A stretch of 32,009 nucleotides of DNA from positions 1-32,009 of the forward strand of contig JBEQBQ010000013.1 in assembly GCA_041639695.1 (NCBI GenBank). The letters run 5' to 3'. Numbering within the stretch: the stretch's first letter is position 1; each line of letters begins with the position of its first letter. The DNA comes from Candidatus Nanohaloarchaea archaeon. GTDB taxonomy: Archaea; Nanohalarchaeota; Nanosalinia; Nanosalinales; Nanosalinaceae. Shown here in pieces: positions 3,326 through 30,941 of the stretch. The translations under genes were made by a program, and so were the position numbers. The notes beneath the pieces are model-generated. The model worked only from the letters and a program-made list of their open reading frames with translations, searched no databases and had not been told where the DNA came from.

Positions 3326-3373
3326 CAATCATAATTGAAGGTATTAAATTCTTATAGATCGAAGATTCGAGTT

Positions 3374-3931
3374 ATGAGAACCGTAACCGTTGTAGGCGGA
3401 GGAGTTGCCGGGCTTCAGGCCGCGGTCATGACCGCAAAAGCAGGAGAAGACACACTAGTTCTGGATACAGGAGAATCGCTTGTAAACAATACAGCAAACA
3501 TTCAGAACCTGGTGGGCCATGAATCAATCAGCGGGCAGGAAATACTTAACTCCGGAAAGCAAAAGCTTGATGACTTTAACGGAGAACTTAAAGAGGAGGA
3601 AGTTGAGAAAGTTGAGAGAACTGAGGAAGGTTTTCTGATTAAGACAGATGAGGATGAGTATGAGTCGGAGTATGTTGTTATTGCTTCTGCCGGCAGCCTC
3701 GAGTTTCTGGATGTTGATGTAGAGTTTGAGGACGGTGTTGAAGGCCCTTACATGATGGAAGAACATGTTAAAACGGATGAAAGCAATAAAGCTGCTGAAA
3801 ACTTGTATGTTGCGGGTCTCGCTAACTCTTGGGAGTACCAGACCTCTACGGCTTTAGGCGATGGTGCTAAAGCTGCTGTAAACCTTCTTTCCGACAAGTA
3901 TGGTGAGCCGTTTACCGACCACGATACGTAG
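3374..3931 (+). CDS. Short FAD-dependent oxidoreductase (thioredoxin-reductase-like FAD domain only)
   Basis: VVGGGVAGLQAA, VVIASAG, NLYVAG, A.GDGAKAA motifs; start moved to ATG 3374. Confidence 0.85.
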   Translation: MRTVTVVGGGVAGLQAAVMTAKAGEDTLVLDTGESLVNNTANIQNLVGHESISGQEILNSGKQKLDDFNGELKEEEVEKVERTEEGFLIKTDEDEYESEYVVIASAGSLEFLDVDVEFEDGVEGPYMMEEHVKTDESNKAAENLYVAGLANSWEYQTSTALGDGAKAAVNLLSDKYGEPFTDHDT

Positions 3932-4234
3932 GTGGTTCAGATGGCGCCGATTTTGGATAGAGTAGATGGCTGTCCCGTGGATTCGAACGGGACGTTATGT
4001 TTTGGGCCTAAGGAGAGCCACTGGAGAATTTTTGGAACCGAGCTTAGACGACTAGATTACCATTTTATGGTGTCGCTGATACTTGGGCTTCTCGTGTTCG
4101 GCCTGCTTGAGCTTCTGGAAAGGAGAGGAAGGATCGATATCTCGATTTACAGAAAGATACTGGTATCGCTGGTCTCGATCCTGGCTATCTTCCTAGTGCT
4201 AGCGTACATGATCCCGATACAAGTCTACTACTAG
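3932..4234 (+). CDS. Small two-TM membrane protein
   Basis: Two hydrophobic helices; abuts the oxidoreductase stop codon. Start uncertain (GTG 3932 or ATG 3941). Confidence 0.55.
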   Translation: MVQMAPILDRVDGCPVDSNGTLCFGPKESHWRIFGTELRRLDYHFMVSLILGLLVFGLLELLERRGRIDISIYRKILVSLVSILAIFLVLAYMIPIQVYY

Positions 4235-4312
4235 TCCAGCCTTGTGCCAGTCTATAATCCACTATTGGGTGGTGCTAGAAGATATGTAAACGGTTTAACC
4301 CATTTCTCAGGT

Positions 4313-4654
4313 ATGGTCAGCTATAGCTTCGATGAAGATTACAGGTGGCACGGCAGGCACATGCTCGAGATAGAAGACAATAAATTTGAGATACCTGCGC
4401 ATCCCGGACAACAAGGCTACAGAGCAGTACCAACACTTTACGGGCTTAGTCAAGGCAGACACCTAGAACAAGTCACGGAAGAAGTTTACGAGAATAAACC
4501 GGGAAAAGTACAGAGCCAGATACTAGACGGGATAAAAGATCTTTTGGAAGACGACAGACTTCCCGAAAAATACAGGTACGAAGTAAAAGAGGTAATAGAA
4601 AACGAGTTTGACTTCTTCAGGACAGAATCAGATCCAAGTTTTGGTGTCCCCTAA
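4313..4654 (+). CDS. Hypothetical protein
   Basis: Acidic ORF; the likely start is ATG 4313 rather than 4244. Confidence 0.55.
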   Translation: MVSYSFDEDYRWHGRHMLEIEDNKFEIPAHPGQQGYRAVPTLYGLSQGRHLEQVTEEVYENKPGKVQSQILDGIKDLLEDDRLPEKYRYEVKEVIENEFDFFRTESDPSFGVP

Positions 4655-16535: not shown

Positions 16536-16979
16536 GTGCAATGCGCCTACTGCGACCACGACTCAACCAAAGTAATTGACACACGCGAGACCTCCGAAAA
16601 GGTCCGCAGAAGAAGAGAATGCAAAGAATGCGGTAGACGCTTCACAACCTACGAAACGGCCGAAAAACTCGACATAAAGGTCGAGAAAGGTGACGGAAAG
16701 ACAGAAGACTTTGACGAAGAAAAAATCCGTTCAGGCGTTTCCAAGGCAGCCGAAAAAACTTCGATCACCGAAGACCAAGTCGAAGAAGTAGTAGAGGAGG
16801 TCAAGAAATCGGTGCGCGGTGAACAGAAAGTACAGTCCAAAAGGATCGGTGAAGAAGTTAAGACACAGTTAAAGAAACGTGACGAAGTAGCTTACATGCG
16901 GTTTGCCTCTGTATACGACTCGTTTGACGACGCTGAAAGCTTCATGAAAGAAGCAGAAGCGTTGAAGACCGAAGAATAA
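16536..16979 (+). CDS. nrdR: Transcriptional repressor NrdR
   Basis: CAYC...VIDTR...[17 protein letters not shown] Zn ribbon, ATP cone, [10 protein letters not shown]. Confidence 0.96.
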
Positions 16980-17040
16980 TGACTTCAGCTTTACACCTGT
17001 TCCATCTCACTTAATGCTCACAAAAAGGTGTATCCAATTA

Positions 17041-19956
17041 ATGACTGAAACAAAACAGAAGACTTCGTTCAAGCTACCAGTAAAAAGAGTAACAGGCGAC
17101 ACTGTCGAGGAGAGACTCACAGAAAACGCCTATCAAAGAATTCTTCCATCCAGATACCTCCTGAAAAACGAGAAAGGAGAGAACATCGAGGAACCGGAAG
17201 AACTTTTCGAGAGAGTAGCGAAGAACGTTGCACAGCCCGATAAAGAATACGATGACGTAGATTTCGAGGAGAGCTGGCAGGAATTCTTCGACCTAATGAG
17301 TAACCTGGCGTTCATGCCTAACAGCCCTACCTTGATGAACGCAGGAGCAGACCTCCAGCAGCTTTCCGCATGCTTCGTAGTCCACCCTGAAGACGACATG
17401 GACTCGATCTTCTCAAAAGTACATGATGCGGCAAAGATCTTCCAGTCCGGCGGAGGCATGGGATACCCGTTCCATCTAATGAGACCTAAAGGAGACATAG
17501 TAAGCTCTACCGGAGGAGTTTCCTCAGGACCTATGAGCTTCCAGCAAGTCTTCGACACGATGTGCGGAACCATCAAGCAAGGCGGAAAACGTAGAGGAGC
17601 CCAGATGGGAATCATGAAGGTCGACCACCCGGACATCCTCAGATTCGTAACAAGCAAGAGGAAAGAAGGTAACCTGTCGAACTTCAACATCTCAGTCGGT
17701 TTAACTGAAGAGTTCATGGACGCAGTCAAGAACGACGAAGAGTACACACTGATTAACCCGAGAACCGAGGAGCCTTACAGGGTCAAGGAAATGACCGCGG
17801 AGTTCTACAACTCTGATGAGGAGTGGTATCCTGAAGCCGCTGGTTCAGACCAGGGTAAGGACGACAACTTCTGGAGAGACTTCGCCAACACGTTCGGAGA
17901 AGAGATCCAGGACTATGATATTGACCTGGAAGTCGGTGACAAGATGACACTTCCAGCAAGATTCATCTGGGAAACCCTGATCGACGGCGCATGGAGAAAC
18001 GGAGAGCCAGGACTCTTCATGTACGACGAAGCAAACGACATGCACTCATTCGATACAGACAAGCATCCGGAACACACAATTGAGGCCACAAACCCTTGTG
18101 GTGAACAGCCGCTTGAGAACTACGAGGCATGCAACCTTGGACACATCAACCTGTCCGTGCTTGTGGACGACAAAGGAGAGGGGGAAGCTCTTACCTTTGC
18201 GGAGTGGAAGCAGAGAAACGGCGACAAATACGACCTCTCGACCCAGGAAGGACTTAACCAGGCTATGCAGGACTACATCCCTGAAGCCATGGACATGGAA
18301 CGTTTCGAGTACACCGCAAAGACAGGAATGAGGTTCCTCGACAACGTTGTAACCATGTCAGACTTCCCATTAGAAGAGATTGAGGACACAGTTACGGACC
18401 TGAGAAAGGTTGGACTTGGTTTGATGGGCTTCGCACAGATGCTTGTCCAGCTAGGAGTCCGTTACGGTTCTGACGAATCTGTTGCCGCAGCCAAAGAAAT
18501 CCAGCGGTTGATCACACGTTACTCGATCGAAGAATCCAACAGACTTGCGGATGTAAGAGGAGAGTTCCCTGAATGGGAGAAATCCAAATGGGCAAACCCA
18601 ACAGAACACGAAGAATGGTTCAGAGACTACACAGGAGGACTCGATCCTGAAGACTTCGAAGACGGTCTGAAGATGAGAAACCACAACACAACCACGATCG
18701 CGCCGACCGGAACAACTTCCATGATAGGAAACACCTCCGGAGGTTGTGAACCGATCTACAGCTTGGCTTACTTCAAGAACGTTGCGAAGGACATCCAGGG
18801 AGAGGACATGCTCGTCGAATTCGACGACTACTTCATCCGCGCTCTAGAGGCGAACGACGTCGATGTAGAAAAGGTCAAGGAAGCAGCTCAGGAGAAGATG
18901 GAGAACAACGAATGGGAAGGCGTAGAAAGTATCCCTGACGAAGTTCTTCCAGCACACGTCAAAGAAATCTTTGCGACAGCTGACCAAGTCACACCGGAAG
19001 AACACATCGATATCCAGGCAGCTTTCCAAGAACACAACCACTCAGGAATCTCGAAGACCTGCAACTTCCCTAACGAAGCCTCGAAGGACGATGTAAGAGA
19101 GGCTTACATGCGTGCCTACGACAAAGGCGTCAAAGGCATGACAGTCTACAGGGATGGAACTCGAGACACACAGGTCATGCAGACCAACAAAGAGAACACC
19201 TTGACCGACATGGACAAGGTCGACATGCTCTCCGAAATTGTTGAAGAGTTCGGTGGAGCCAAAGAACTTCTTGAATCCAACGAGTTCGAGGAAGTAGTAA
19301 GTCAGACAGGTCTCCAGATCCAAGACGAAGAAACTGAAGATCTTTCACAGGAAGTTACGCAGGAAGGCGTACAGGCCGAGTCAAGTGAGGAAGGCGGCCA
19401 CACCTCGATGGGATCAAACGAGAAGGTCAAGGAAAGACCTAAGATCGCGACAGGAACCACACAAGAAATTGAAACGGCTTACGGCGACCTGTTTGTGACG
19501 ATCAACAACTCGAAGACGAACGGACCAATCGAAGTATTCGCAAGAGTCGGCAAAGGCGGAGGATACACACAGTCCTTCACCGAAGCACTCGGAAGAACAA
19601 TCAGCCTCTCGTTAAGATCCGGTGCTGACGCTGAAGAAGTCATCAAGCAACTGGACGACATCCGTTCGCCGCAGATTTCTTGGGACCAGGGAGAGCAAAT
19701 CCACTCCGTGCCTGACGCAATTGCGGAAGCGATGAAACGTCACGTCAACGGCCACGGCGGGTCGCAGCAGACGGTCGACTCGTTCGATGGAGACACAGAG
19801 TCGCGGACCCAGACCAAGACCGACCAAGAGGAGAAAGCTGACGCCGCCAAGATAGTCCAGGACGGTGGAAACCCTGAATGTCCGGAATGCGGAGGCATGC
19901 TTGTCCTACAGGAAGGCTGCAACAAGTGCCCTGATTGTGGATACAGCAAATGTTAA
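17041..19956 (+). CDS. nrdJ: Class II adenosylcobalamin-dependent ribonucleotide reductase with fused TSCPD/Zn-ribbon domain
   Basis: [48 protein letters not shown], and C-terminal CPECG...CPDCGYSKC. No intein seen. Confidence 0.96.
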
Positions 19957-20010: not shown

Positions 20011-20427
20011 TTATTTTAAAGATGTTATTACGTCTATAAACTCTTTTCTACCTTCCCAGTCAATAAATACGTCACAGGGCACTCTGTTACCAATAACTAG
20101 ATAAATTTTGTTAGGAAAATTTCTCATAAACTTTCTTGCTCTCTTTTTAGAAATATCGTTTGGCCATCCCTTTACCTCAATAACCACATTTCCAACTATG
20201 AAGTCTGGCGTGTAGGTTAGATTCTTTGAGAGTTCAAAAGTCTTAGACTCGTACTCATAATCCATGCCAGATTCATGCAACATCAAATCTATTTCCTTTT
20301 CCCAGTTTGATCTCACAGTGTGTCCTGTTTCATTTACCGTCTGGAATTTAAGACCTGATGCAACACCATAACTCGGATGATCTTTTCCAGTTACGCCATA
20401 TAATGGATGATTTTCTCCACCTAATGT
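20011..20427 (-). pseudogene. 5'-truncated endonuclease (NUMOD3-like repeats plus PD-(D/E)xK domain)
   Basis: The frame stays open upstream of GTG 20316: TLGGENHPLYGVTGKDHPSYG...GHTVRSNWE...YTPDF...IEVKGW. It is bounded by TAA at 20428-20430 with no start codon. Confidence 0.65.
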
Positions 20428-20646: not shown

Positions 20647-21555
20647 CTATTCTCCGGGTTCATGATAAACCACAACGTGGTTGCTGGAGTTGTTGAACGC
20701 GTATTCGTCCATCCATGTTCTAAGCGTTGCCATTTCTTCCTGTCTTTCTTCCTCCGGGATAACCATTCCATCCGGCAGCGCCTCTTGAGCTTCACCCGCA
20801 GTTAGAGTATAACCGTGTACCGGGTATCCTCCAACAAGGTTAGCTGCGTGTCTTTGTGCATCCTTCTCATCAATCCCGTCATGATCCTCGAGGATCGATG
20901 CGGCGTAATGCTCCATGGTTCTTGTCATCCTGAGTGCTTCTTCATACTCCAGGATATCCATTCTTTCCATCATGCTCTGTTCCGGGGCACTTGTTTCAGA
21001 TGGATGCTTGTTATCCCATTTTTCAAGCCATCTCTCGTATGATCCTGTAAGGTCGGTTGTGGAGTACTGTTCTCCGTTGCCATTAGCGATTTGGGGGTCT
21101 AACGGTCCGAGATCACTCATTTCGCCCATGACTATTGTTTCTCCTGTCAAAGACACTAGTGTTCCTCCCGACTTAGCAAAGTGGGGCACGTAGGTCTCTA
21201 CCGTATCGAAGTTATTGTTTATGGATCGGGCTATTTTGTTTGCCGAACCTATCCTGCCACCAGGACTGTTTATAACTAGTTTGAGATCGTCAACATCGGA
21301 GTCGATGTTTTTGAGTGCATCCTCGACGGATCGCTCGTCAAAACGTGTGAAGCTTGCTCTCTTCGCTTGGTTTGCTGAGACTTTTTCAGCGCCATACGGC
21401 GCTGTTATCTGGAGTGCTGCCTCATCTTCATCTAAAATGTTTTCGAGCTTGGCCCTGTTTTCTTCTTTAGGTTCTGGGCCCGAAGGCGTAGAAAGGTGTC
21501 CGCTCTGTTCCAGCAGTCCGATAAGGTCTTCGTCTCTACGGTTAGATCTGTTCAT
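20647..21555 (-). CDS. SDH-family ClpP/crotonase-fold serine protease
   Basis: INSPGG, VPHFAKSGGTL (catalytic Ser), LGPLDPQ and YPVHG motifs. Confidence 0.88.
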   Translation of the reverse strand: MNRSNRRDEDLIGLLEQSGHLSTPSGPEPKEENRAKLENILDEDEAALQITAPYGAEKVSANQAKRASFTRFDERSVEDALKNIDSDVDDLKLVINSPGGRIGSANKIARSINNNFDTVETYVPHFAKSGGTLVSLTGETIVMGEMSDLGPLDPQIANGNGEQYSTTDLTGSYERWLEKWDNKHPSETSAPEQSMMERMDILEYEEALRMTRTMEHYAASILEDHDGIDEKDAQRHAANLVGGYPVHGYTLTAGEAQEALPDGMVIPEEERQEEMATLRTWMDEYAFNNSSNHVVVYHEPGE

Positions 21556-21578
21556 GTAATTGTTTAGTGACAAAAAAG

Positions 21579-21644
21579 ATTTAAGCATGTCCTAAAAGGA
21601 CAGTTCTAGAACTCTGAATCTCAATAATATAACTCTTAGTTATA
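21579..21644. promoter_or_regulatory. Divergent promoter region with three palindromes
   Basis: TATA-like elements about 25 nt from each ATG; TGTCCT-N3-AGGACA (21588-21602), AGTTCTAGAACT (21602-21613), TATAACT-N3-AGTTATA (21628-21644). Confidence 0.55.
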
Positions 21645-27652: not shown

Positions 27653-28606
27653 GTGATTCATGAAAAGGACGGCATCCACATAAACACGAGTGAGAAGATC
27701 GTGGCGGACGCGAGAAGTGCCAGAGGCGACATAAACTTTGTCTCGCATGCACACGCGGACCACGCCGCGAAGAAAGACGGTGAGTTCATCTGCTCCGAAC
27801 TTACACGGAAGATACTATCCGAAAGATTCGATGTAGAGATCCAAAAACAGCAAAACGATAGAATAGAGCTTATTAACTCCGGACACATCATAGGATCTAC
27901 CTCAGCCCTTATAGACCAAGAAATCCTTTACACAGGAGATTTTTCGCCGAGAGACAGGCTTTATCTAGACGGTTTCCGGCCTGTAAAAGCCGAGAAACTG
28001 GTTATGGAGACGACCTATGGAATACCGGCCTACAGGTTTCCAGACCAAGAAGAGGTAGAAAACAGAGTTAAGGACTGGATACAGGACAACACCGGTCCAT
28101 TAGTACTGTTTGGCTACTCGTTGGGTAAAGCACAGAAAGTACAGCAGATAGCACAGAAAGCTACAGACCGGGAAATTATTGCACACGGAGCCGTCAAAAA
28201 CATGAACGAAGTAATAGAGAAACATACAGAACTAGATTTCAGGGCCAAACCATACGGAAAGAACAAAGACTTACTTGAAGATGACGGGATACTGATCGCG
28301 CCTTCCAGAAGCTCGAAAGCCGACTGGATACAGAAACTTGTGGACAAATACGGTGTGAAGAAAGCCGGTTTCTCCGGATGGGCAAACACCGACTCATACA
28401 AGTATAGAGGCGGTTACGATGAAACTTTCGTTCTTTCCGACCACGCCGACTTCGATGAATTAGTGGAAACAGTCGAAAACGTTAATCCGGAAAAAGTGTA
28501 CACGCACCACGGCTTTGACGAAGAGTTCGCATCATACCTGAAGAGGGAGAAAGGTATCGATGCACGGGCTTTGAAGAACAACCAGTCAAGCCTTACAGAT
28601 TTCTAA
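27653..28606 (+). CDS. Metallo-beta-lactamase/beta-CASP nuclease
   Basis: SHAHADH, SGHIIGS, YTGDF, ETTYG, YSLGKAQ, SDHADF and HG motifs. Confidence 0.92.
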   Translation: MIHEKDGIHINTSEKIVADARSARGDINFVSHAHADHAAKKDGEFICSELTRKILSERFDVEIQKQQNDRIELINSGHIIGSTSALIDQEILYTGDFSPRDRLYLDGFRPVKAEKLVMETTYGIPAYRFPDQEEVENRVKDWIQDNTGPLVLFGYSLGKAQKVQQIAQKATDREIIAHGAVKNMNEVIEKHTELDFRAKPYGKNKDLLEDDGILIAPSRSSKADWIQKLVDKYGVKKAGFSGWANTDSYKYRGGYDETFVLSDHADFDELVETVENVNPEKVYTHHGFDEEFASYLKREKGIDARALKNNQSSLTDF

Positions 28607-28645
28607 AGCTTCACGAATATATTATTTTACGAGAAACGATAATAC

Positions 28646-29170
28646 ATGACTGAAGGTAGCTATGAAGTTAGCCCTGAAGATTTAAGGGCTCGAATAAAAG
28701 ATCCCCTAACCACATTTCCTAACTCCAAAAAGGTTTACATGGAGGCTGTTAGCTCCACACAACTTGATGATTCTGTGATGGAAGAACAATATGAATTATT
28801 CGGTATGGGGCCGGATTTAACCAGTTTTTACAAGAGAATGTGTCTTGACGAGGGCGCGGATCCAGGTAACGACTACGTAGGGAAGTCATGGGGTAGCTTG
28901 ATCCGACATAGGCAGGAAGCACTTGGAGAGGTCAGAACTGCCCTGTTAGGTTTAGCTGATCTTTCTCAGGAGATCGAAAAGGAGGCCGCCGATCTACAGA
29001 GCCCTGCGGGCTTCACCGATTCAGGGGTTCCAGGAGAACCGTCGACCCTCGAAAGCTTTTTCGAATCCTACAAGGACGAAAACGAAAGATACGCCGAAGC
29101 GGATGAAGCTCTGGAACTAACGGAACAGGAGATCAACAACTTCAACGACACACTGCGCAGACTGAGCTAG
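28646..29170 (+). CDS. Hypothetical protein
   Basis: Acidic helical ORF. Confidence 0.6.
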   Translation: MTEGSYEVSPEDLRARIKDPLTTFPNSKKVYMEAVSSTQLDDSVMEEQYELFGMGPDLTSFYKRMCLDEGADPGNDYVGKSWGSLIRHRQEALGEVRTALLGLADLSQEIEKEAADLQSPAGFTDSGVPGEPSTLESFFESYKDENERYAEADEALELTEQEINNFNDTLRRLS

Positions 29171-29172
29171 GT

Positions 29173-29331
29173 TCAGAAGGTATACAGCCGGTCCAAGGCT
29201 GCATCCACAAATTTCTCCTCTTTATCCTCAAATAGTGGTGCAGCATCCTCTACAGCCATTCTTCCCTCGGAGGTAAGCTGTTTTCCGAACTGTTTCCGAG
29301 CCGAACTTAACACATCAACCTTACCGGTCAA
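29173..29331 (-). pseudogene. Orphan 3' fragment (52 codons) of the toprim gene; diverged direct repeat of 30481-30642
   Basis: Translates as LTGKVDVLSSARKQFGKQLTSEGRMAVEDAAPLFEDKEEKFVDAALDRLYTF*; 49/52 aa identical to the C-terminus of 30481-30906. Confidence 0.92.
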
Positions 29332-29357
29332 GCCTTACAGATTTCTGACTAAACTAG

Positions 29358-30449
29358 TTATTCAACCTTCTCCTCCAGTTTTTCAATACGAGCAACCAAG
29401 TCACGCAAAATTTCGTGGTGTGCTGCGATGACAGGCCACTTTTTCGGCTGATTCGGAACCATATCTCCCACATCATAGCCGTACTTGTTAACGTATTCTT
29501 CATGAGCCCATTTTTCCGACAGAGGCTTCATGTGTACAGCATGTTCTGACCAATTGTAAAGGTGCTCCGCAATAAATCCGTGAGCGGTATTCTCGTTATC
29601 ATCTCTTGTTTCGTAGGTAACAGCCTTTACATCGAGTATTCCGTACGGTTTAGCATTAAGTTCCCGGATATTTTTCTTGAACCTTTCAGAAGAGACAGAG
29701 CCGCCAGAATAGTCGAAGAGAGTAGCGGTCTTTGCACCACCAGAACCTTCCTGTGCAGATGAAATACTTACATCGCCGTCAGCAAATCCGCTGATTTGGC
29801 CGTCATGGCCTTGAATCTTCCACTGACCACTACCTGCATCATAACCGCCATCGTAAATATGGTTGCCCTGAATTCTACGGACGGATGTAATCGGTTCATT
29901 TGACATATCAATATACGTGTTCGTAAATTCGAGAGTCCCCGGTGCCGAACTTCCCACGTAATACCGGAAAGCTGAATACGACCCGGCATCGTCATAGACA
30001 TACCACCCCAAATCACCATCATTCAAGCCGGTAGAAGTGTGCATTACAGGACGACCATTACCGTCCAAAGAATACACATCGTCTCCACTACCATTCTCAA
30101 TAGCCTGACCTGTATCCAGCCTCAAATCAGTGTTTTTGATTTCAACTGGCCCCCCTTTGTTTATCTTGAAGTAATCCGTACCTGAATCAAGAAAATCAAG
30201 ACCTGAATCATTTGAAATACCATTATTCGTAAGTTTTAATCCCGAAGCAGAAGCCAACCCCATGGCGCCAATACCAGCAGCTCCAGCCCCCAACTTCTTC
30301 AAGAAACCTCTACGTGAAATCTTATTTGAAACATGATTATCCTTATCTTCCTTTTTAAGCTGTCTTACTTCCTCTTCAAGTTCTTTCTTTTCTGTCTCCA
30401 GTTTTTCGACTTTTCTAGCCAGCTCCTCAACTTTTTCCTCCAAATCCAT
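29358..30449 (-). CDS. Tail-fibre/adhesin-like protein: N-terminal coiled coil, Tat motif, beta-rich body, C-terminal peptidase S74 (ICA) chaperone
   Basis: SRRGFLKK plus hydrophobic stretch and ASA cleavage site; SSERFKKNI...TY...GFIAE...C-terminal coiled coil. Confidence 0.8.
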   Translation of the reverse strand: MDLEEKVEELARKVEKLETEKKELEEEVRQLKKEDKDNHVSNKISRRGFLKKLGAGAAGIGAMGLASASGLKLTNNGISNDSGLDFLDSGTDYFKINKGGPVEIKNTDLRLDTGQAIENGSGDDVYSLDGNGRPVMHTSTGLNDGDLGWYVYDDAGSYSAFRYYVGSSAPGTLEFTNTYIDMSNEPITSVRRIQGNHIYDGGYDAGSGQWKIQGHDGQISGFADGDVSISSAQEGSGGAKTATLFDYSGGSVSSERFKKNIRELNAKPYGILDVKAVTYETRDDNENTAHGFIAEHLYNWSEHAVHMKPLSEKWAHEEYVNKYGYDVGDMVPNQPKKWPVIAAHHEILRDLVARIEKLEEKVE

Positions 30450-30480
30450 GAGAGTAACTGGAAAAATCGAGAACTTAAAC

Positions 30481-30906
30481 TTAATCGAATGTATAAAGCC
30501 GGTCTAAAGCAGCATCCACAAACTTCTCTTCCTTATCTTCGAATAATGGTGCTACGTCCTCTACAGCCATTCTTCCCTCTTTCGTTAACTGCTTTCCAAA
30601 TTGCTTGCGCGCAGAACTAATCACATCGACCTTTCCGGTTAAGTGTTGACGTATTTCTTTGTTCTGCTGTTTTCCGTGTGAATCAAAATCGGTTAAAATA
30701 GCTACTTTTTCACTTCCACGTTCTACATCCTCAGCTAAGTCTTCATGGGTTCTTTCAGCTGATTCAAAGATCTTTCCTTCAAAACCAAGCATTCTCATAA
30801 CTCTCTTGTCGGAGAAGCCTTCTACAATTATAGAGTCAACGTCTCTATCCAGTTTTTCAACCTCGTTTTCCAGACGGTTTCTTTCCTTGAACTTCTCTAC
30901 ATCCAT
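30481..30906 (-). CDS. Small toprim-domain protein (RNase M5/primase-like)
   Basis: IIVEGFSD and ILTDFDSHG motifs. Confidence 0.88.
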   Translation of the reverse strand: MDVEKFKERNRLENEVEKLDRDVDSIIVEGFSDKRVMRMLGFEGKIFESAERTHEDLAEDVERGSEKVAILTDFDSHGKQQNKEIRQHLTGKVDVISSARKQFGKQLTKEGRMAVEDVAPLFEDKEEKFVDAALDRLYTFD

Positions 30907-30941
30907 AACTGGGGTAAATTAGGAACTCGAAGTATAAATAC

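Follow-up and report, generated by a model that had tools for sequence, protein, structure and literature searches.

Intramolecular chaperone (ICA) domains of the Peptidase_S74 (S74) type are known from phage tailspikes and fibers such as the endosialidase endoNF (3GW6), the T5 L-shaped fiber pb1 (4UW8), and the GA-1 neck appendage (3GUD). A cellular protein, the membrane-bound eukaryotic transcription factor MyRF/MrfA (7DC3), took a viral ICA for trimerization and Ser-Lys self-cleavage, according to PMC8326128. The same source describes that the chains of MyRF and endoNF are cut just N-terminal of the Ser and that both dyad residues are essential. Among haloarchaea, the Tat-fimbriae (tafi) of Haloarcula hispanica are built from subunits with a signal for twin-arginine translocation (Tat). 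They depend on the twin arginines (RR) and are cut by signal peptidase, and subunits with no further relationship share conserved N-terminal regions, as described in PMC11821415. Large surface proteins (SPEARE proteins, LamG, and adhesin-like proteins) have been proposed for host contact in nanohaloarchaea (PMC10266531, PMC9765267). Here, we describe P0001, a gene on a 32,009-nt contig of a nanohaloarchaeon of the family Nanosalinaceae (JBEQBQ010000013.1, assembly GCA_041639695.1). The whole contig, positions 1 to 32,009, is the window to which all positions refer. The gene lies on the minus strand at 29358 to 30449 and comprises 363 codons plus a stop, as read from its open reading frame (ORF) and translation. 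It probably encodes a cellular, Tat-exported, homotrimeric surface fiber of two modules that was laterally acquired recently.

P0001 resembles the phage ICA proteins in having a C-terminal module behind a beta-rich trimeric stalk. The module starts with S-x-x-R-x-K, contains a GF[IV]AE block, and closes with a helix for which trimeric packing is predicted. P0001 differs from these proteins in being nonviral and in carrying a coiled coil and a Tat signal, which would address it to its own cell surface. Its module is long (111 residues) and diverged, and its likeness to the solved structures is not significant by sequence or fold. MyRF is a precedent for such a cellular protein. It gave the top three Foldseek rows, at nonsignificant E values of 0.11 to 0.2. 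Cleavage of MyRF detaches its DNA-binding domain from the membrane anchor within a eukaryotic cell, whereas the P0001 module ends a predicted secreted archaeal fiber. The tafi are the nearest functional parallel to the P0001 family, as a Tat-signaled haloarchaeal surface appendage, but they are built quite differently. Their subunits have short ordinary signals, a modeled beta-sandwich, and donor-strand exchange, and they have no coiled-coil leader, trimeric fiber, or S74 module. No sequence relation of P0001 to the tafi subunits was seen in any search made here. The SPEARE, LamG, and adhesin-like proteins are candidates for the same role in the same organisms. They are giant and multidomain, in contrast to the short, many-copy, Tat-addressed fibers found here. 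P0001 appears to be a viral ICA-capped fiber tip grafted onto a Tat-addressed nanohaloarchaeal fiber family.

The features of P0001 all lie on the minus strand. The S74-type intramolecular chaperone module was placed at residues 253 to 363 (29361 to 29693) by Pfam scores and a conserved dyad. Its 111 residues hold SSERFKKNI...GFIAE...VARIEKLEEKVE and end in a terminal heptad helix. The S74 family PF13884 (cutoff, 22 bits) scored 20.5 bits on whole P0001, 22.3 bits on its residues 220 to 363 alone, and 23.9 bits on P0001 in a six-frame search of the genome. It scored 26.6 bits on the relative P0002 and 33.8 bits on the relative P0012. S74 was matched by six of the seven aligned C-terminal modules at an E value of ≤0.1 (best, 5.8e-9). 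By these scores, the match appears borderline for P0001 alone and firm for its family. Two PHROG tail fiber families also matched P0001, at 5.8e-9 and 3.5e-7. The putative dyad consists of Ser253 (codon at 29691 to 29693) and Lys258 (codon at 29676 to 29678). S253, R256, and K258 (S..R.K) are kept in all six relatives that cover the site. The i/i+5 spacing of Ser and Lys equals that of MyRF S587/K592 and endoNF S911/K916. By analogy with these proteins, the predicted self-cleavage site is V252/S253. A dyad of the self-cleaving type, as the earlier note had claimed from the letters of the window, therefore appears to be kept in the sequences. The GFIAE and AAHHEILR blocks are kept across relatives that share 30 to 52% identity, which points to purifying selection.

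The two parts of P0001 have different relatives. Compared with P0003, a paralog from the same genome, P0001 has 57 to 77% identity over residues 1 to 120 and 33 to 47% over residues 121 to 180 and is unrelated thereafter. P0012 and P0021, which are Tat-less, are similar to P0001 from about residue 211 through the end. The module boundary lies between residues 180 and 211. P0012, P0021, and P0027 lack both the leader and the signal. The middle of P0021 matched 19 records annotated as phage tail fibers (cyanophage), and P0012 matched 4. P0001 looks like a fusion of the family front end and a viral-type tip that carries its own chaperone. The earlier note had proposed a domesticated viral fiber. 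The viral type of the C-terminal part stands; for the whole protein, a module swap is the better description, with residues 1 to 180 family typical and only residues ~211 to 363 like Tat-less phage-type fibers. The tip region comprises residues 181 to 252 (29694 to 29909), was delimited by windowed identity and the trimer interface, and ends at the predicted cleavage site.

P0001 is the sole S74 carrier in its genome, in which S74 was found once by the six-frame search. Residues 230 to 363 had a strong match in 1 of the 70 genomes of the phylum, namely, its own. Two further, weak matches to the S74 part appear to be spurious. One, in the genome G028, fell in a 638-amino-acid (aa) ORF that reads like a helicase by translation. 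The other, in G067, covered a terminal coiled-coil stretch only. The 542-aa P0002 has the whole architecture of P0001, with the shaft unit repeated once more. The earlier note had suggested a survey of homologs for conserved termini around a hypervariable middle. Such a pattern was seen only against P0002, and the main difference there is the extra shaft unit. Two very acidic metagenome proteins, P0074 and P0135, each combine a coiled coil, an RR signal, a fiber, and an S74 module of their own with a further long C-terminal coiled coil. The leader/Tat/fiber/S74 architecture may exist outside nanohaloarchaea too. The C-terminal module had no match in GenBank phages by tblastn and none among proteins of 637 to 2,000 aa. 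IMG/VR gave no match to A1, P0021, or P0012, and JGI metagenome contigs gave none to A4. Among GTDB species genomes, A4 had only a weak match in Micromonospora (26% identity; E value, 1e-4). P0135 had no match among plasmids and one weak minor-tail match among phages. P0009 (5,620 aa, 226 bits) was rejected as a repeat artifact. It is an Ig-repeat adhesin with about 44 matches of 2 to 8 bits each, to P0001 residues 201 to 242 only.

The front end begins with a leader coiled coil at residues 1 to 38 (30336 to 30449), assigned from a predicted helix and heptad statistics. Residues 3 to 38 were modeled as a single helix (pLDDT, 92 to 98). In the best 28-residue window, LIVM residues fill 7 of the 8 a/d positions and are absent from the 20 others, a pattern that 0 of 200 shuffles matched. 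The register was read as Val at a and Leu at d and fits a dimer and a trimer alike. The twin-arginine signal follows at residues 44 to 68 (30246 to 30320). It reads ISRRGFLKKLGAGAAGIGAMGLASA from I44 to A68, with Ser69 next, and comprises SRRGFLKK, a Gly/Ala-rich hydrophobic region (h-region), and ASA. The assignment is based on a match to TIGR01409 (NCBIfam) of 19.8 bits (cutoff, 16.7) and on the conserved R46/R47, which are kept in at least 90% of 92 aligned relatives. L52 to L71 are uncharged, with a Kyte-Doolittle maximum (19 residues) of 1.29, and S69 comes directly after A66-S-A68. By analogy, such weak hydrophobicity would be that of a cleavable Tat signal. P0001 shares with canonical Tat signals (TIGR01409, PF10518) the S-R-R-x-F-L-K motif, the weakly hydrophobic Gly/Ala h-region, and the AxA site. 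It differs from them by the 38-residue heptad coiled coil before the motif and by a PF10518 score below the cutoff. Family-typical stem and shaft sequence occupies residues 69 to 180 (29910 to 30245), as judged from identity to the paralogs and a common motif.

This front end is shared by a multigene family. The first 100 to 240 residues of P0001 matched 29 ORFs of its own genome, itself included, by phmmer, and a hidden Markov model of the N-terminal signal and stem matched 31. The genome comprises 0.97 Mb in 38 contigs. The front end of the family has a long helical n-region, SRRxFLKKxGAGAxGxGA, and then a conserved mature start, after which the sequences diverge. The paralogs share the mature-part motif ASGLKLTxNGIS..SG.DFLDSG..YFK..GGPVE, which continues in P0001 as ..NTDLRL..GQAIE. 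The RR lies mostly at residues 40 to 58 in the paralogs as well. Twenty-five paralogs have long helical n-regions (≥28 residues), 15 with significant heptad periodicity and 10 as charged helices without heptads. The family proteins are short, at ~200 to 410 aa. Three of the paralogs, P0149, P0121, and P0038, end in a module that matched phrog_18834 (function unknown) at E values of 3e-7 to 2.7e-10. Other family tips may likewise be shared with viruses. The coiled coil before the RR, which the earlier note had regarded as unusual, is instead a hallmark of the family, which numbers ~29 paralogs in this genome and, outside it, 239 representative clusters.

The family is linked to the Tat machinery. 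A Tat-like motif within the first 120 residues marks 28 ORFs of the genome, 26 of them from this family. The genome contains a single tatA and a single tatC; the two are neighbors on contig C2, within a cluster of five family members (C2 ~38100 to 46400). The TatC match was 184.3 bits, and the TatA match was 44.1 bits. The N-terminal 125 residues matched 12 of the 70 species genomes of the phylum at E values of ≤1e-5. tatC was found in 20 of the 70, comprising 10 of the 12 family-positive genomes versus 10 of the 58 family-negative genomes; kin are not independent in these counts, and the two family-positive genomes without tatC are only 77% and 86% complete. A family member lay within 5 kb of tatC in 7 of the 10 genomes having both, by comparison of coordinates. 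Among 1.84 billion representative proteins, 239 matched P0001 at E values of ≤1e-3, most of them via the N-terminal part only. The Tat system of this genome seems almost dedicated to the leader-plus-Tat fiber family. The family is greatly expanded here, with 29 matches versus 2 to 7 in the 11 other positive genomes.

The homotrimer model of P0001 residues 150 to 363 reached 0.85 in median ipSAE, compared with 0.00 for the top-scoring of three controls. Three runs agreed in at least 87% of contacts, with partner pLDDT values of at least 74. In the calibration, which fits a three-copy job only roughly, the applied mark was attained for 20 of 30 solved pairs and for 1 of 23 single chains. The interface comprises residues 170 to 200, 223 to 245, 247 to 266, 271 to 295, and 331 to 362. 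It is tightest at residues 340 to 352, within the C-terminal helix (residues 344 to 362). Such a pattern in the model would be expected of an intertwined stalk that is capped by a helical ICA. A Foldseek search with the whole-protein monomer placed trimeric viral fibers and fibers of extracellular contractile injection systems at the top (E values, 0.16 to 0.9). None reached an E value of ≤0.001, and these matches were treated as not significant.

The observations of the earlier note were confirmed, and its interpretation was supported in part. A nanohaloarchaeal origin, as it had assumed, is in keeping with the source's name for the relative P0006 and with a run label that points to a hypersaline lake. 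The note had described an ORF with a coiled coil, a Tat signal, a beta-rich fiber, and a C-terminal S74-type module, and all of these elements are present in the 363-aa translation. The heptad coiled coil before the RR was confirmed by the modeled helix and its a/d occupancy. The strong Tat signal was borne out by the motif and by TIGR01409, with PF10518 below its cutoff. The note would have given way to a nonconserved RR, and the RR was found to be conserved. Modeling of the trimer, which it had proposed as a check, gave a predicted homotrimer that passed against the controls. One further suggestion, that the coiled coil acts as a cytoplasmic anchor, appears less likely than a cleaved leader because the h-region is weakly hydrophobic and is followed by ASA/S.

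These elements suggest a path from folding to contact. Residues 1 to 180 would be the common front end of the nanohaloarchaeal family, with leader, Tat signal, and stem/shaft. Residues ~211 to 363 would be a tail-fiber-type tip that ends in the S74-type intramolecular chaperone. The S74 module would nucleate an intertwined trimer in the high-salt cytoplasm, perhaps with help from the N-terminal coiled coil. The Ser253/Lys258 dyad would then cut the Val252/Ser253 bond and release the chaperone. TatAC would export the folded trimer with three bundled signal peptides, and signal peptidase would cut after ASA68 and remove the leader. The conserved N-terminal stem would dock the ~184-residue fiber on the cell surface at a common surface partner. 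The variable tip would contact a ligand, most plausibly on a haloarchaeal host. We infer the export, cleavage, and surface location of P0001 and its adhesin and host-binding roles. P0001 is probably one of about 30 surface fibers by which this symbiotic archaeon touches other cells. Folding with the help of S74 takes place in the cytoplasm, and Tat translocates proteins that are already folded; P0001 would therefore have a reason to use Tat, as its fiber would have to fold on its chaperone in the cytoplasm.

P0001 appears to be inserted at a site that is empty in relatives. An MBL-fold gene and a PRK04017-like gene converge and abut in the genomes G064 (a congener, 99% complete), G028, and G065, with gaps of ~35, 13, and 82 nt, respectively. 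In G047, they are separated by ~1.4 kb of other DNA. In the genome of P0001, they are separated by 1.87 kb, which contains orf174, a 157-nt copy of the PRK04017-like 3' end, a 24-nt copy of the MBL-fold gene end, and P0001. The first copy (29176 to 29332, minus strand) is a remnant of 52 codons, a displaced PRK04017-like 3' end. It was recognized as a 157-nt direct repeat that is 80% identical to 30487 to 30643, and it is 85% identical to G064 over 29198 to 29328. At the junction (29317 to 29346, plus strand), the final 24 nt of the MBL-fold gene occur for a second time (29323 to 29346, 96% identical to 28581 to 28604). The two homologies overlap by 12 nt, AACCTTACCGGT (29317 to 29328), which resembles a microhomology junction. 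The resident PRK04017-like gene has a divergent 3' tract (30487 to 30698, minus strand). This tract is 71 to 72% identical to G064 (bins 30499 to 30698), versus 85 to 91% for 30699 to 30906, and was probably imported together with P0001. On the simplest interpretation, DNA of a related strain, containing the MBL-fold gene end, P0001, and the PRK04017-like gene in this order, would have recombined in by one homologous crossover inside the PRK04017-like gene. The other end would be an illegitimate join that displaced the native PRK04017-like 3' end. P0001 would be a recent lateral arrival at an intergenic site.

The inserted stretch also contains orf174 (28646 to 29170, plus strand), an acidic 174-aa ORFan by family and homolog searches. 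It had no Pfam, PHROG, or NCBIfam match and no paralog in the genome, and the 69 other genomes of the phylum gave no homolog. In G064, G028, and G065, the flanking genes do not have it between them. The element TTTAAG lies ~25 to 30 nt upstream of the P0001 ATG, inside the 31-nt gap after the upstream gene, and may be a TATA-like box. The arrangement is not one assembler's artifact because a 3,569-nt contig from a second assembler spans 28000 to 30923 and covers all junctions, with nine differences and no gap. This contig comes from run X1, the sole run with the stretch, which may be the source sample, so that the sampling is not independent. Runs X2 and X3 gave no cover of the stretch, and no RNA run was listed as containing it. 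Short contigs of run X1 (90 to 95% alike) match the PRK04017-like 3' end and then continue with unlike sequence, at 29192 and 30509. They are a hint that the community has further alleles of this insertion site.

The surroundings of P0001 are cellular. By Pfam, the genes of the window are ordinary ones and encode EamA transporters, a class II ribonucleotide reductase with NrdR, a PIN/ATPase/KH protein, PCMT, and an MBL-fold exonuclease. No capsid, portal, terminase, tail, or integrase was found among the window ORFs (40 by Pfam and 27 by PHROGs). This agrees with the earlier note, which had reported no viral neighbors; on the right, the contig stops 1.5 kb from P0001, at 32009, so that this side was only partly seen. 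The same note had held that homologs in viral structural modules only would count against a cellular gene. P0001 was found outside any viral module, with ordinary genes around it and chromosomal paralogs. The only notable PHROG matches of the window lie ~8 to 9 kb off. They are a small resolvase-type endonuclease (20011 to 20316, minus strand; phrog_29037, 3.5e-20) and a ClpP/NfeD-type protease (20647 to 21588, minus strand), both of which we read as cellular.

Several results weigh against a Tat-exported S74 fiber acquired as a module. The S74 search proposed in the earlier note gave scores above the cutoff of 22 bits with residues 220 to 363, in six frames, and with relatives, whereas the whole protein scored 20.5 bits with PF13884, under that cutoff. 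Pfam TAT_signal (PF10518) gave 13 bits, below its cutoff of 22.7. The RR at residues 46 and 47 lies later than usual, behind the 38-residue coiled coil, where a short n-region would be expected. TATFIND presumably accepts an RR only within about the first 35 residues. Both monomer models were of low confidence, with pLDDT values of 64.3 (whole protein) and 55.0 (C-terminal part). The C-terminal model had no Foldseek match at an E value of ≤0.001, and ICA chains came in at 0.11 to 3.1. MyRF ICA (7dc3) took ranks 1 to 3, T5 pb1 (4uw8) rank 5, endoNF (3gw6) rank 13, and GA-1 (3gud) rank 37. VIA Z scores for 3gw6, 7dc3, 4uw8, and 3gud were 3.5, 2.9, 2.9, and 2.4, and an unrelated chain was at the top with 4.0. 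PDB sequence searches with P0001 and two profiles returned coiled-coil noise only and no ICA chain. The trimer pass may partly be the model's memory of solved S74 trimers. A viral origin of P0012, P0021, and P0027 is suggested by homology of their sequences. The imported tract was delimited with one congener over ~200 nt, and other window genes also fall to 62 to 72% identity locally.

The borderline Pfam score bears on whether the module still works. The S74-like part could be a noncatalytic trimerization tail that stays attached to an uncleaved fiber, or the gene could be a recent, decaying, and unexpressed copy. The module is long and has diverged between GFIAE and the last helix, which would fit this reading. 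The frame, however, is intact over all 363 codons, the dyad and R256 are kept in each of the six relatives covering the site, and conservation of GFIAE and AAHHEILR at 30 to 52% identity suggests purifying selection, so that we regard this as quite unlikely. It is very improbable that P0001 is a true viral tail fiber gene in the remnant of an integrated virus or virus-like element, with the repeats as duplications of an attachment site. Such a remnant would fit the absence of P0001 from the same site in three relatives, the direct repeats on its flanks, the tail fiber PHROG matches, the adjoining ORFan orf174, and the S74 module common to P0001 and the Tat-less phage-like fibers. It fits poorly with a 32-kb contig on which neither a viral hallmark family nor an integrase was seen. 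The first 180 residues, with the leader and Tat signal, are family-like (57 to 77% identity over residues 1 to 120) to chromosomal paralogs on many contigs. The repeats, moreover, are the 3' ends of two flanking cellular genes in the order of a recombination junction, unlike an attachment site.

The fate of the leader is a separate matter. Uncleaved Tat signal anchors exist, for example, in Rieske proteins, and P0001 could be anchored by its signal. The coiled coil would then be a trimeric cytoplasmic anchor, and the Gly/Ala-rich h-regions would form a three-helix membrane bundle. Leader length and helicity are conserved across the paralogs, which would be costly if the leader were discarded, and the h-region is rich in small-xxx-small spacings. 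Its weak hydrophobicity and the ASA/S site directly after it argue for cleavage instead. The residues right after ASA/S are among the most conserved of the family, as expected of a mature N terminus that docks. We consider a signal-anchored fiber unlikely. At best a doubtful possibility is a more specific form of export, in which the leader and RR bundle three signal peptides so that the threefold fiber meets a TatC-based receptor. This receptor contains three TatC with three TatB in recent cryo-electron microscopy structures described in PMC13673990. The genome would use Tat almost only for this export. Tips, including the S74 tip of P0001, would be exchanged with viruses of the same haloarchaeal hosts, as one pool of receptor-binding modules shared by the symbiont and the viruses. 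S74 would be shed in the cytoplasm before export.

The leader/Tat/fiber family of P0001 is undescribed in the literature searched. Searches for S74 with archaea, tail fibers with nanohaloarchaea, Tat with tail fibers, and Tat signal extensions returned nothing on it, and no report of S74 on a Tat-exported protein was found. Two nanohaloarchaeal genome papers (PMC9765267, PMC10266531) mention only the patchy presence of tatC. The Tat system of the cultivated strains is described there as a lone TatC that is likely inactive (PMC10266531). Most secreted proteins of haloarchaea go via Tat, according to PMC13673990. The family would provide a concrete task for the Tat system, which nanohaloarchaea carry only patchily. 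If the predicted chaperone is real, P0001 would be a third setting for S74, besides viruses and tail-derived particles and eukaryotic MyRF. The insertion scar would be that of a fiber gene moving between genomes, a module exchange caught midprocess. For the question of how DPANN archaea locate their hosts and stay attached to them, the P0001 family provides short, tractable candidates whose route of export is clear and for which a trimer and two sites of cleavage are predicted.

Two other loci of the window were recorded. An NrdR-type repressor with a Zn ribbon and an ATP cone (16536 to 16979, plus strand) immediately precedes a class II-like ribonucleotide reductase that has a TSCPD domain (17014 to 19956, plus strand). 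NrdR is mainly bacterial, and the pair may therefore be a transferred operon. At 3335 to 4654 (plus strand), a 198-aa ORF contains only the N-terminal FAD-binding part of a pyridine nucleotide-disulfide oxidoreductase. It is followed by two short ORFs without a family, and the oxidoreductase gene may be split or frameshifted.

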